Positions 58,398 through 62,097 of a stretch of 64,000 bases of DNA are shown in pieces. The position numbers were made by a program, and so were the translations under genes. Positions within the stretch are counted from its first letter, which is position 1. Each line of letters opens with the position of its first letter. Below the pieces are notes generated by a model. That model ran no database searches. It was not told the origin of the DNA and saw nothing but the letters and a program-made list of their open reading frames with translations. The DNA is taken from assembly GCF_058153355.1 (NCBI RefSeq), contig NZ_CM177019.1. The stretch is one strand, 5' to 3'.

Positions 58398-58463
58398 AAA
58401 CAATAGCCGCTATGACCATCTACAGGGATGGCGGCCTTCCTACATATAAAAAATGGATTTAAT

Positions 58464-59156
58464 ATGAAAAAGTTAAATGCAATAATTTTATTATCCTCTC
58501 TGACTTCCGCATCGGTATTCGCAGGCGCATACGTCGAAAACAGGGAGGCATATAATCTCGCCTCCGATCAGGGCGAGGTTATGCTACGTGTGGGTTATAA
58601 CTTCGATATGGGCGCGGGTATCATGTTAACCAATACCTACAACTTTCAGCGAGAAGATGAACTAAAACATGGATATAACGAAATCGAAGGTTGGTATCCT
58701 TTATTTAAACCAACCGATAAATTAACCATCCAGCCCGGTGGCTTAATTAATGATAAGAGCGCCGGTTCCGGTGGTGCTGTTTATCTGGATGTTAACTACA
58801 AATTTGCCCCGTGGTTTAACCTGACGGTACGCAACCGTTTTAACCATAATAACTACAGCACAACCGATTTAAACGGTGATCTGGATAATAATGACAGCTA
58901 CGAGATTGGTAACTACTGGAACTTTATTATTACCGATAAGTTCTCATATACCTTTGAACCGCATTATTTTTATAATATTAATGATTTCAACAGCAGCAAT
59001 GGCACCAAGCATCACTGGGAAATCACTAACACCTTCCGTTACCGAATTAATGAGCACTGGCTGCCCTATATTGAATTGCGCTGGTTAGACCGCAACGTCG
59101 AGCCGTACCACCGCGAGCAAAACCAGATCCGTATCGGGACGAAGTATTTCTTCTGA
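58464..59156 (+). CDS. ompL: Outer-membrane porin OmpL
   Basis: Start MKKLNAIILLSSLTSASVFA (signal peptide); beta-barrel-like alternating pattern, C-terminal ...KYFF; ORF track begins 36 bp earlier. Confidence 0.85.
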   Translation: MKKLNAIILLSSLTSASVFAGAYVENREAYNLASDQGEVMLRVGYNFDMGAGIMLTNTYNFQREDELKHGYNEIEGWYPLFKPTDKLTIQPGGLINDKSAGSGGAVYLDVNYKFAPWFNLTVRNRFNHNNYSTTDLNGDLDNNDSYEIGNYWNFIITDKFSYTFEPHYFYNINDFNSSNGTKHHWEITNTFRYRINEHWLPYIELRWLDRNVEPYHREQNQIRIGTKYFF

Positions 59157-59169
59157 TGTAAAAATGTAA

Positions 59170-59198
59170 AAAGCCGCTGATATTTAAGCGGCTTTTTA
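59170..59198 (+). terminator. Rho-independent terminator after ompL
   Basis: aagccgct-gatattta-agcggct stem-loop followed by TTTTT. Confidence 0.7.
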
Positions 59199-59336
59199 CA
59201 CAGATATTCACAATATAAATAACTCCCCATAATTATATAACCGCGTTGATTATAAAATATTCCTCGTCCTCTCTATCAAAGTCATTGACTACCAGGTAAG
59301 ATCTTTTCCACTGCAACACTCACAAGGAATGAGAAA

Positions 59337-60185
59337 ATGGAAAAGAAATTTTTTATGGATTGGGATAATGAAATCCCGCAAGAAGAGTTTATTAACAATA
59401 TTTTAGCCGATGAAGACCTGCCTAAAATCCGCTCTCTGATTATTGGTCGTTGGGGGGAGTGCTGGGATGAGGAAAGTTGCCAACCAATAATCGACATGTT
59501 TGTTGAACATGCCGAACGCTTTGCTCATCTCGAATCCCTATTTATCGGCGATATGGAAAGCGAAGAGTGTGAAATTTCGTGGATAAAACAAGGGGATTAT
59601 TCTCGTCTGTATGCTGCGCTGCCGAACCTGAAAAAGCTGACAATTAAAGGTACTCAGGGCCTGGAACTGGGAGAAATCGCCCATGACAAACTGGAGCATC
59701 TGGAAATTATCTCTGGCGGTACGCCGTGTGACGTGTTCGCCTCATTGCAAAATGCCCAACTGCCTGCGTTAAAAACACTTATCGTTTATATTGGCGTTGA
59801 GAATTATGGTTTTGATGCATCGCTGGATATCGTAATGAAGCTGGCGTCGAAATCCCTCTTCCCGAGCCTGACGCATCTTGGCCTGGTGAACAGCGAAGAG
59901 CAAAACGAAATCGTCCGCCGCGTGCTGGAAAGCGACATTCTGCCGCAACTGGAAGTGCTGGCACTCTCCTGCGGTACGCTTACCGACGAAGGTGCAGAGC
60001 ATCTTCTCAAACATGCCGATCGCCTTAGCCATCTGAAACTGCTGGATTTGTACCATCATTACCTGACAGAAGAGATGCAGAAAAAACTGCAAAAAACACT
60101 GACATGTACTCTCGAATTATCAGAAGCGCTAACGCCTGAAGTCTATGATGACGAAATTTATATGCATGCGATGTATACCGAATAA
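59337..60185 (+). CDS. Repeat-containing protein with leucine-rich-repeat-like segments (accessory cluster gene 1)
   Basis: 282 aa acidic protein with recurring LxxLxxLxL-type units (LPNLKKLTIKG, LEHLEIISG, LPALKTLIVY, FPSLTHLGLVN, LPQLEVLALSCG, LSHLKLLDLY); preceded by the ompL terminator and an AT-rich promoter-like region. Confidence 0.55.
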   Translation: MEKKFFMDWDNEIPQEEFINNILADEDLPKIRSLIIGRWGECWDEESCQPIIDMFVEHAERFAHLESLFIGDMESEECEISWIKQGDYSRLYAALPNLKKLTIKGTQGLELGEIAHDKLEHLEIISGGTPCDVFASLQNAQLPALKTLIVYIGVENYGFDASLDIVMKLASKSLFPSLTHLGLVNSEEQNEIVRRVLESDILPQLEVLALSCGTLTDEGAEHLLKHADRLSHLKLLDLYHHYLTEEMQKKLQKTLTCTLELSEALTPEVYDDEIYMHAMYTE

Positions 60186-61232
60186 ATGACATTTATTGGG
60201 AGAGAGTCATCTCTCCCATTATTTATCACAGAAAAGGAATTCTTCGTGATTACGCTAATTGGTCATCCTGAAAGCAAACGCACATTTTATTTTTGCCAGG
60301 CAGCGTCACGCTTACAGGAACATATCAACGTAGTGAGCTATGATCAAGCACTTACCCTGCTCTTAAATAAAGGCATGGTAAAAATCGATCCCCCCTTACA
60401 TCAGGAAACAGATATTCGCTTAATTAATACGGTTAGCCAAAACTATATTACTTTTTTACAAAAAATGGCTACCAGAAGGGAGATCCGTTTTATTAACTCA
60501 CCAGAAGGTATTATTCATCTTCTGGATAAACGCCACTGTAAGCAACGATTAGTCGAACACGCGATCCCGACACCGCCAATATTAGCGGATGATATCCGTA
60601 GCTACGATCAACTGATCGCCTGTATGCGCAGCGAAAAGGTTTATCGCGTGTTTATTAAGCCGAATTTCGGATCAGGGGCCGCCGGGGTGCTGGCTTTGAG
60701 TCTACATCCCGGCGATAACCGTCAGGCGCTTTATTGCGCCATCCAGGTTGCAGGTGACAGGCTGGTGAACAGTAAACATATTATCCGCTATGAAAACAGC
60801 GGTGATATTACGTTGATTGTGAATGCTATTTTACAACAAGACAATATTATCGAACGCTGGCTGGCAAAAGCCAGAGTGGGCAATAAAAGCTACGATTTAC
60901 GCATAGTGTACGTTAATGGTGAAATCGTCTGGCGGGTTGTCAGAACATCATCACAGCCGATCACCAATTTGCATCTGCAAAATGAAGCCATTCGTTTTGC
61001 CGATCTTAATTTACCCGCAGAAAAAGTGGCTGACATTGACACGCTTTGTCTCAACGCCATGAAACTCTACCCGGACGTACACATTGCCGGGCTTGATGTA
61101 TTACTCACGCAAAACTTAACCCCCTATATTATCGAAATTAACGGCCAGGGCGATCTTATTTATCAGGACACCTGCGAACAAAATATGATTTATCAACGCC
61201 AGATTCAGGTAATGAGAGAACACCATGTATAA
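60186..61232 (+). CDS. ATP-grasp family enzyme (YheC/YheD / RimK-like ligase) (accessory cluster gene 2)
   Basis: Motifs VFIKPNFGSGAAGVLAL, YDLRIVYVNGEIVW, YIIEINGQGD typical of ATP-grasp folds. Alternative GTG start at 60247 after a perfect hairpin gggagagagtcatctctccc (60205..60224). Confidence 0.6.
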   Translation: MTFIGRESSLPLFITEKEFFVITLIGHPESKRTFYFCQAASRLQEHINVVSYDQALTLLLNKGMVKIDPPLHQETDIRLINTVSQNYITFLQKMATRREIRFINSPEGIIHLLDKRHCKQRLVEHAIPTPPILADDIRSYDQLIACMRSEKVYRVFIKPNFGSGAAGVLALSLHPGDNRQALYCAIQVAGDRLVNSKHIIRYENSGDITLIVNAILQQDNIIERWLAKARVGNKSYDLRIVYVNGEIVWRVVRTSSQPITNLHLQNEAIRFADLNLPAEKVADIDTLCLNAMKLYPDVHIAGLDVLLTQNLTPYIIEINGQGDLIYQDTCEQNMIYQRQIQVMREHHV

Positions 61233-62097
61233 CGTAACAGACGAAGTCCCGGAAAATACCCGCACGGCAATCCATTCCTGCGATGGCGAAATCAATATGA
61301 ATGATTTGATAGCCAGGGAGGCGAATGTTCTGTTTGTAGTGCTTGATTCCCTGCGTTTTGATATTGCGTTTCAGGAACAAGAGGCGGGCAATACGCCGAA
61401 CATTAACCGCTATGGTCGCTGGATAAAGTGCGAAGCCGCTGGCAATTTTACCTGGCCTTCGCATCATTCGATGTTTTCTGGTTTTATGCCTAAGCCGCTG
61501 GAAGCCGCACCGGGCCATTCAATGCTCTTTTTTCCCAAAGATATTGGCTTAGGGCGTTTAGGGCCAAAAAATGCATTCGCATTCAGCGAAGAGACGTGGA
61601 TTAAAGGGCTGGAAAACAAAGGTTACCGCACTATCTGCGTGGGTGGCATCTCCTTTTTTAATAACCGCTCAGGGATGGGAAAAGTGTTCCCGGCGATGTT
61701 TAAAGAGAGTTACTGGTATCCTAATTTCTCCTGCACGGTGAAAGAGAGCATGGATAATCAGCTCACCTTAATTAACAAAAAGGTGAACGCTGAACAGCCG
61801 CTGATGATGTATATCAATATCGACACCATTCATTATCCGAATCATTTTTATATTGAAAATGCCAAACCTGGCGATACGGTAGAAACTCACGCCGCTGCCC
61901 TGCATTATATTGATGCCAGAATCGAAAAACTTTTCGATATCTTTCGGCAAACCGGGCGGGAAACGTTAGTTATTCTCTGTTCCGATCATGGCACCTGCTA
62001 CGGGGAAGACGGTAAATATTTCCACAGTTTTAACCATCCGATTGTGAATACCGTACCCTATTTTCACTTTGTGTTAGACGGCAAAGACCATGAATAA
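61225..62097 (+). CDS. Alkaline-phosphatase-superfamily metalloenzyme (sulfatase/phosphotransferase-like) (accessory cluster gene 3)
   Basis: 290 aa; N-terminal VVLDSLRFD and C-terminal LCSDHGT motifs typical of the AP/sulfatase superfamily; overlaps gene 2 by 8 bp. Confidence 0.55.
   Translation: MYNVTDEVPENTRTAIHSCDGEINMNDLIAREANVLFVVLDSLRFDIAFQEQEAGNTPNINRYGRWIKCEAAGNFTWPSHHSMFSGFMPKPLEAAPGHSMLFFPKDIGLGRLGPKNAFAFSEETWIKGLENKGYRTICVGGISFFNNRSGMGKVFPAMFKESYWYPNFSCTVKESMDNQLTLINKKVNAEQPLMMYINIDTIHYPNHFYIENAKPGDTVETHAAALHYIDARIEKLFDIFRQTGRETLVILCSDHGTCYGEDGKYFHSFNHPIVNTVPYFHFVLDGKDHE

Follow-up and report, generated by a model that had tools for sequence, protein, structure and literature searches.

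Our analysis points to a conserved RNA hairpin at one junction of a little-studied enterobacterial operon, which we examined in a stretch of 64,000 nucleotides (nt) from contig NZ_CM177019.1 of NCBI RefSeq assembly GCF_058153355.1 (hereafter, the window). The hairpin lies on the plus strand between the first two genes of the STM4015-to-STM4011 operon. Gene 1 encodes a repeat protein of the STM4015 family with 282 amino acids (aa) (59337 to 60185, plus strand; NCBIfam NF038076, E = 1.3e-96, and so named in the RefSeq annotation of E. coli), and gene 2 encodes a 328-aa ATP-grasp ligase of the STM4014 family (60246 to 61232, plus strand). Comparison with relatives indicates that the hairpin is non-coding and that it is conserved as an RNA structure through compensatory change. 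While its structure, its non-coding status, and its compensatory conservation can be read directly from the sequences compared, we infer its effect on RNA level and the mechanism involved. On balance, we lean toward a passive role in which the hairpin would form a 3' barrier that stabilizes the gene 1 message, accompanied in E. coli by partial termination of transcription, with gene 1 expressed in excess as a result.

The hairpin is located in an untranslated spacer of 60 nt (60186 to 60245, plus strand), which RefSeq leaves unannotated in 155 E. coli genomes. The local sequence reads ...ACCGAA TAA ATGACATTTATT GGGAGAGA GTCA TCTCTCCC ATTATTTATCACAGAAAAGGAATTCTTC GTG ATT ACG..., where TAA (60183 to 60185) is the stop codon of gene 1 and GTG (60246 to 60248) is the start codon of gene 2. 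The stem-loop spans 60197 to 60218 on the plus strand, with 9 base pairs (bp) formed by arms at 60197 to 60205 and 60210 to 60218. Its perfect 8-bp core (60198 to 60217) consists of the 5' arm GGGAGAGA (60198 to 60205), a 4-nt loop GTCA (60206 to 60209; GUCA in RNA), and the 3' arm TCTCTCCC (60210 to 60217), and the ninth pair is T60197 with A60218 (U-A in RNA). The stem begins 12 nt past the gene 1 stop codon, and the hairpin ends 27 nt before the start codon of gene 2, which is preceded at a distance of 7 nt by a Shine-Dalgarno sequence, AAGGA, read from the sequence (60234 to 60238, plus strand). A preliminary description of the window, made from the letters alone, had reported a perfect 8-bp stem at this junction. 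The stem is there, but the description had placed it at 60205 to 60224, 7 nt too far to the right and directly after the stop codon, and had given it a 5-nt loop (gtcat) by counting the first T of the 3' arm twice.

The structure is stable, as the calculation of folding energy proposed in that description bears out. Specifically, the 20-mer has a folding energy of -13.6 kcal/mol (z = -3.7; none of 200 shuffled sequences was equal or better), and the 9-bp form, in which five of the nine pairs are G-C, has an energy of -15.2 kcal/mol. A single 8-bp hairpin somewhere in 64 kb is unremarkable. Perfect 8-bp hairpins with loops of 3 to 8 nt occur 25 times in the window, compared to 7.1 +/- 3.4 times in dinucleotide shuffles, and there are 10 perfect 9-bp hairpins versus 1.6 in shuffles. 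For one given 60-nt spacer, the chance expectation of such a hairpin is about 0.005, and it is the conservation with compensatory changes in other genomes that lifts this hairpin well above chance. It is not a dispersed element. The hairpin sequence occurs at one place per genome, always in unannotated DNA, among the 155 E. coli genomes, and it has a single match within the window even when three mismatches are allowed, which rules out a repetitive extragenic palindromic (REP) sequence, a bacterial interspersed mosaic element (BIME), or a miniature inverted-repeat transposable element (MITE). Covariance models from Rfam had no match at 60100 to 60300, even at E <= 10.

Support for a functional RNA comes from comparing junctions among E. 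coli variants, Superficieibacter electus, and Salmonella contigs that were found via clusters of ATP-grasp proteins. We excluded one noisy, frameshifted, E. coli-like contig (L090, containing protein P0035, with 68% identity). Every enterobacterial copy examined from these three genera had, between the stop codon and the Shine-Dalgarno sequence, a hairpin whose loop measured 4 nt. The copies represented two E. coli clades, several lineages of Salmonella, and Superficieibacter, and their stems differed in sequence. The main E. coli type has the 9-bp stem UGGGAGAGA with a loop of GUCA or GUAA. A rare E. coli clade, represented by two genomes, has the 13-bp stem AUAACAGGAGAUG (arms ATAACAGGAGATG and CATCTCCTGTTAT) with a loop of GUAA or GCAA. 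In Salmonella, the stem is GGGGAAUG with 8 bp and a loop of UACA, UGCA, UGCG, or UGUG; two Salmonella lineages have perfect stems that are extended to 14 to 15 bp and that differ from one another by a compensatory swap of A-U to U-A. The stem in Superficieibacter is likewise GGGGAAUG with 8 bp, including a terminal G-U pair, and the loop is CCUG.

We quantified this pattern from an alignment of 13 distinct junction sequences that was registered by hand on the loop. All 104 pair cells (13 sequences by eight core pairs) contained standard pairs, and five of the eight core pairs had changed on both sides. The covariation score was 0.542 compared to 0.253 +/- 0.038 in shuffles, with none of 500 shuffles reaching the observed value. 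When the 3' partner was slid by one to three columns as a control, pairing dropped to 42 to 71%. Furthermore, the G-U pairs in Superficieibacter and in locus L217 are compatible with RNA from the plus strand only. The eight loops (GUCA, GUAA, GCAA, UACA, UGCA, UGCG, UGUG, and CCUG) are free to vary, which fits selection on the stability of the stem rather than on a recognition sequence. RNAalifold recovered the main stem only in part from an 88-nt alignment of the junction, in which the arms were misregistered by MAFFT gaps and by one stray sequence of 20 nt. A scan of metagenomes for the 15-base pattern TGATTACGCTNATTGG yielded chance matches almost exclusively; just one of 120 loci was a true junction, and this was identical to the window, adding no diversity.

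The spacer and its hairpin appear from these comparisons to be specific to the Enterobacteriaceae and to be found at exactly one junction of the operon. The other junctions of the enterobacterial operon overlap by 4 to 8 nt, and it is only between genes 1 and 2 that there is a spacer. In 79 loci from Firmicutes, along with one other proteobacterial contig, the homologous junction mostly measures -4 to +20 nt, which is too short for a stem of this kind, and none of the Firmicutes spacers longer than 25 nt contained a comparable hairpin. Some of the Firmicutes spacers have three to four tandem copies of a unit of about 18 nt, GCAUUGAUUACRGAGUAA (L026, 929 to 997; L047, 2940 to 3021; L033, 1008 to 1132).

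How might the hairpin act? It is part of the plus-strand transcript of the STM4015-to-STM4011 operon, downstream of the gene 1 stop codon and upstream of the Shine-Dalgarno sequence of gene 2. If it is a barrier, the polycistronic RNA would be cut downstream of the hairpin, which would then halt 3'-to-5' exonucleases, leaving the gene 1 message to persist as the enzyme-coding part decays. In E. coli only, the stem together with the sequence that follows it, UUAUUUAU, would probably terminate a fraction of transcripts as well. Under barrier or termination, gene 1 would be expressed above the five tightly overlapping enzyme genes. Control by an intercistronic hairpin that favors a first gene over downstream enzyme genes is of a known kind. 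For example, a genome-wide study of E. coli found that protected RNA segments end in stable 3' hairpins that block 3'-5' exonucleases, and that these hairpins lack a following U tract, are conserved in Salmonella, and stabilize the 5'-most gene of an operon (Dar & Sorek 2018, PMC5927463). In Clostridium, such control has been described as "selective RNA processing and stabilization" (PMC4423207). Our hairpin matches the published protective 3' hairpins in that it has no U tract in Salmonella, is conserved between E. coli and Salmonella, and follows the 5'-most gene of its operon.

The resemblance extends to protective stem-loops of the malE-malF type, the classic example, which also consist of a stable hairpin just downstream of the 5'-most gene, do not require a U tract, and are conserved in structure between E. 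coli and Salmonella. In keeping with this, a stable hairpin was found 1 to 12 nt past the gene 1 stop codon in all enterobacterial copies and was conserved in relatives. The outcome expected of such stem-loops, namely that the upstream message exceeds the downstream message, is here a prediction from sequence. There are also differences. The malE-malF element is a multi-copy REP sequence, whereas the present hairpin is single-copy, and most of the structures reported by Dar and Sorek are inside the downstream coding region, whereas ours is in a dedicated spacer.

Several considerations weigh against a barrier that favors gene 1. The literature on STM4011 to STM4015, SEN3800, and PMLTE is nearly empty, with only two incidental table entries. 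The number of independent evolutionary events in our comparison is small, at roughly three or four lineages, and a template switch within quasi-palindromes can yield seemingly compensatory changes in a single step. As exonuclease barriers go, a stem of 8 to 9 bp is on the weak side. The U tail differs between genera, so one shared mechanism is not guaranteed. Finally, the operon in the window may be decaying, given a deletion in its STM4012 gene that is described below.

The barrier has to be weighed most carefully against a leaky Rho-independent terminator, or attenuator, at which polymerase would stop in a fraction of rounds and the enzymes would be made by read-through only. A G+C-rich stem of about 5 to 15 bp with a short loop is expected of intrinsic terminators, and the hairpin has one (9 bp, 4-nt loop, -15.2 kcal/mol). 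In E. coli, and among the copies compared only there, the stem is followed by a U-rich tail, UUAUUUAU (60219 to 60226, plus strand), which was identified in a scan for terminator-like sequences. A scan for the terminator consensus flags the E. coli hairpin, which has nine pairs (five G-C), a loop of 4 nt, and TTATTTATCA as its tail. Kingsford-type scores for the E. coli tail range from -3.0 to -4.06, placing it in the top 1.4 to 9% of 15-mers in the window, and the best of these (-4.06, top 1.4%) is near the score of -4.12 for the terminator of the neighboring porin gene ompL. Furthermore, the block TTATTTAT does not differ between any of the E. coli variants.

Terminators in comparable positions are known. 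In the production of microcin C, an intrinsic terminator between mccA and mccB sets the ratio of substrate to enzyme (Zukher et al. 2014, PMC4231749). As in that system, our hairpin occupies the gap that separates the leading gene of an operon from the first of its enzyme genes, the product of the leading gene may be the substrate of the enzymes, and the E. coli copy has a U-rich tail. Unlike in that system, gene 1 encodes a repeat protein of 282 aa rather than a short peptide, its role as substrate is hypothetical, and Salmonella has no U tail. Leaky terminators akin to that of mccA-mccB also follow the precursor genes of lantibiotics. Compared to a canonical Rho-independent terminator such as that of ompL (59164 to 59201), the hairpin shares a tetraloop, a stem rich in G+C, and a position after a stop codon, but it has 8 to 9 bp instead of 15, its U tract is interrupted or absent, and it is inside an operon.

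The E. coli tail UUAUUUAU contains six U residues out of eight, and its U tract is broken by three A residues. In Salmonella, the hairpin is followed by UACUCACC, CCCUGUUC, or CGAUAAAG, with one to three U residues out of eight and scores of -1.6 to -2.5, which are random-like; the score in Superficieibacter is -2.56. Because the Salmonella tails are random-like, termination cannot be the function that is conserved across genera. Salmonella keeps the stem without the U tail, which argues that the conserved part is the stem and not a terminator. We therefore consider it possible but doubtful that termination is the primary function. Since the U tail after the stem is found only in E. coli, the conserved role is most likely that of a passive 3' barrier, with which termination is compatible; the two are not mutually exclusive. 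The preliminary description had proposed an intercistronic attenuator or processing element that could set the ratio of expression between gene 1 and the enzymes. Structural conservation backs a functional element; if attenuator is taken to mean an intrinsic terminator, the term suits E. coli alone, as Salmonella lacks the U tail.

A different kind of explanation is that the hairpin is a palindrome without function, kept or remade by mutational bias such as template switching in a spacer that merely separates two genes. Templated mutation makes perfect inverted repeats in one step and so mimics covariation, the independent lineages number only three or four, and the cluster is accessory (157 of 5,426 E. 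coli genomes) and partly decayed in some genomes. Yet at least seven to eight perfect pairs have been kept in every copy from three genera despite diverged flanks and loops, and the stems differ in sequence at the same position and with the same loop length. Together with the low chance expectation for a 60-nt spacer (about 0.005), these observations make a functionless palindrome quite unlikely.

We judge an action on translation to be very unlikely as well. The hairpin could insulate the ribosome-binding region of gene 2 from upstream folding, or its 3' arm, once freed, could mask the gene 2 Shine-Dalgarno sequence. The 5' arms do resemble Shine-Dalgarno sequences (GGGAG, AGGAG, GGGG), and the pyrimidine-rich 3' arms resemble the anti-Shine-Dalgarno sequence of 16S rRNA. 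In Salmonella, the stem begins 1 to 7 nt past the stop codon, within the footprint of a terminating ribosome, and in some constrained folds CCCC was paired with the Shine-Dalgarno GGGA. Nevertheless, the E. coli hairpin still forms when a ribosome footprint is imposed, leaving the Shine-Dalgarno sequence untouched. The alternative pairing is absent in L091 and Superficieibacter and is weak elsewhere (-7 to -9 kcal/mol in total), and the spacing between stop codon and stem varies from 1 to 12 nt over the enterobacterial copies. In particular, a switch in which ribosomes terminating on gene 1 would expose an anti-Shine-Dalgarno sequence was rejected, as constrained folds gave no consistent alternative pairing across lineages.

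A further point in favor of a translational role is a weak second hairpin, seen in all three genera, whose loop displays the Shine-Dalgarno sequence. In minimum-energy folds, this stem-loop of the window (AUCACAGAA / AAGGAA / UUCU..GUGAU) extends over 60225 to 60250 on the plus strand, its loop containing the Shine-Dalgarno sequence and its 3' arm containing the GUG start codon. Salmonella and Superficieibacter have a comparable stem of A-U pairs that encloses GGGA. The second stem-loop was not recovered by RNAalifold.

It is highly improbable that the hairpin is part of a coding sequence. The frame of gene 2 is open from an ATG at 60186 in the window and in some other E. coli, which would give the ATP-grasp enzyme an N-terminal extension of 20 residues (peptide MTFIGRESSLPLF...), and some gene calls in Salmonella also start upstream, at an ATG within the stem. 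The comparisons indicate instead that the 60-nt spacer is non-coding and that gene 2 starts at GTG 60246, and several lines of evidence lead to this conclusion. First, positions 2 to 348 of the 349-position NCBIfam STM4014 profile align to residues 23 to 343 of the open reading frame (ORF) from ATG 60186; with profile position 2 at residue 23, the N-terminus of the family corresponds to V21, which is GTG 60246. Second, in 24 of 27 aligned homologs, the N-terminus is no more than a few residues away from the conserved "xITLIG" strand. Third, RefSeq starts the gene at a GTG, 61 nt past the STM4015 stop codon, in all six E. coli genomes inspected. Fourth, ATG 60186 is not retained throughout E. 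coli: the most common class reads ATA and has also lost 1 nt between this position and the GTG, and the rarer clade reads ACT or AGT. Finally, the ATG has no Shine-Dalgarno sequence, whereas the GTG has AAGGA 7 nt before it, within a block (TTATTTATCACAGAAAAGGAATTCTTCGTG) that is invariant in all E. coli variants.

The GTG start is already the public RefSeq annotation and hence is not new. It had also been suggested in the preliminary description, which put it at 60247, 1 nt off, and which regarded the hairpin as lying in the annotated 5' end of the ATP-grasp ORF; ATG 60186 is only the start of the longest ORF, and the annotation uses the GTG. The alignment of N-termini that was proposed there agrees with the GTG, with 24 of 27 homologs beginning near the "ITLIG" strand, and coding sequence conserved through the hairpin from ATG 60186, named there as the result that would speak against the idea, was not seen among the homologs. 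As for Salmonella, two protein clusters, P0003 and P0004 (341 aa, with thousands of members), take as their start an ATG that falls within the hairpin's 5' arm (loci L084, L085, and L216, around 3001 to 3040). This start is probably wrong and the GTG 39 nt downstream the real one, judging from the family alignment and from the 328-aa P0005.

Last, an operator at which a dimeric regulator would bind DNA, for instance at an internal promoter, would account for the perfect dyad symmetry but is exceedingly unlikely, because a protein-binding site would keep its sequence, whereas here the two half-sites have changed in concert, both from genus to genus and between E. coli clades with a divergence of just 9%, G-T pairs are tolerated, and a sequence scan detected no promoter-like site in the 60-nt spacer.

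If the hairpin does raise gene 1 above the enzymes, the C-terminus of the gene 1 protein may offer a reason for it. In the window, the protein ends in ...IYMHAMYTE (60156 to 60185), and gene 1 proteins end in ...[P/A]M[L/Y/I]TE in 82 of 83 loci from Proteobacteria and Firmicutes (L004 to L089). In sequence, the ATP-grasp enzyme weakly matches the RimK, LysX, MptN, and CofF families. A search of PDB sequences with the family profile returned no match at E <= 0.01, and relatives were found by fold search alone: the closest PDB folds to an AlphaFold model of the enzyme (predicted local distance difference test [pLDDT] of about 92) were ArgX-LysW, RimK-S6, and LysX. LysX and ArgX, as also reflected in PDB titles, ligate onto, or extend, the C-terminal glutamate of a protein. 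RimK also ligates onto or extends a C-terminal glutamate (PMC10375531). When the ATP-grasp enzyme was modeled with AlphaFold2 as a fusion, via (G4S)5, to the 25 C-terminal residues of the gene 1 protein, using 26 paired rows, the enzyme was predicted at a pLDDT of about 92, and the tail was left unplaced with a pLDDT below 50, an outcome that neither supports nor refutes docking of the tail.

The fold matches and the C-terminal motif suggest that the gene 1 protein may be a substrate or carrier that is modified on its C-terminal glutamate, which would explain a need for its expression in excess. Extending this idea, we tentatively consider the hairpin to be a stoichiometry device of a carrier-protein pathway. 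STM4015 would serve as the substrate or scaffold rather than as a partner of the enzymes, STM4014 would extend or load the glutamate of its C-terminal ...M(L/Y)TE, STM4013 and two HemN-like radical S-adenosylmethionine (SAM) enzymes would then act on the product, and the spacer with its hairpin would have been inserted in the enterobacterial lineage for an excess of scaffold. We hold this larger scheme to be possible rather than probable.

An intercistronic hairpin alone is ordinary biology, and the logic of a carrier protein is the more novel lead. If gene 1 is truly in excess, this would support its protein as the substrate of the ligase and radical SAM enzymes that follow, and such a role, if true, would be a way into the chemistry of the whole STM4011-to-STM4015 cluster. 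The hairpin is also a clean case of an intercistronic element defined by structure only, with compensatory evolution over a short phylogenetic distance. Its host operon occurs in Salmonella and, among complete E. coli genomes, in about 3%. In addition, work on the hairpin confirms the start of the ATP-grasp gene and exposes Salmonella gene calls that begin inside the stem, probably in error.

The remainder of the operon and its surroundings are as follows. Upstream of gene 1 is the gene of the porin OmpL (58428 to 59156). Right after it, at 59164 to 59201, there is a strong hairpin of 15 bp that is flanked on either side by T runs, followed by a promoter-like site at 59207 to 59236; this hairpin is likely a bidirectional terminator that separates ompL from the STM4015 operon. 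Downstream of gene 2, and identified by NCBIfam matches, are genes for the STM4013/SEN3800 hydrolase (61225 to 62097, plus strand), which overlaps gene 2 by 8 nt, and the STM4012 radical SAM enzyme (62090 to 63232, plus strand). In RefSeq, the downstream enzyme genes overlap by 8 nt and 4 nt, and the E. coli cluster continues with the STM4011 radical SAM enzyme and a Cof-type HAD hydrolase, followed by the convergent typA. The cluster is chromosomal, between ompL and typA, in 157 of 5,426 complete E. coli genomes; in two of these, the allele is divergent (91% identity) and has the alternative hairpin.

The window's copy of STM4012 has an in-frame deletion of 32 aa with a junction near 62540 (380 aa versus 412 to 413 aa), through which it has lost VSIGIQSFNDLELATLHRRHSAENAHRALELL, a conserved segment shared by Salmonella and other E. 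coli. Judging from its sequence, the STM4012 enzyme of the window is probably inactive, and the window's copy of the pathway may be inactive because STM4012 lacks these 32 conserved residues. The true start of STM4013 is uncertain (61225 or 61297). The longest ORF and the RefSeq start both overlap gene 2 by 8 nt, and the NCBIfam profile begins at residue 25, a Met at 61297. Within the STM4013 gene of Salmonella LT2, a ChIP-chip (chromatin immunoprecipitation and microarray) study reported a site for the sigma-54 holoenzyme, TGGCATAAAACCTGAAAA (PMC3844500).

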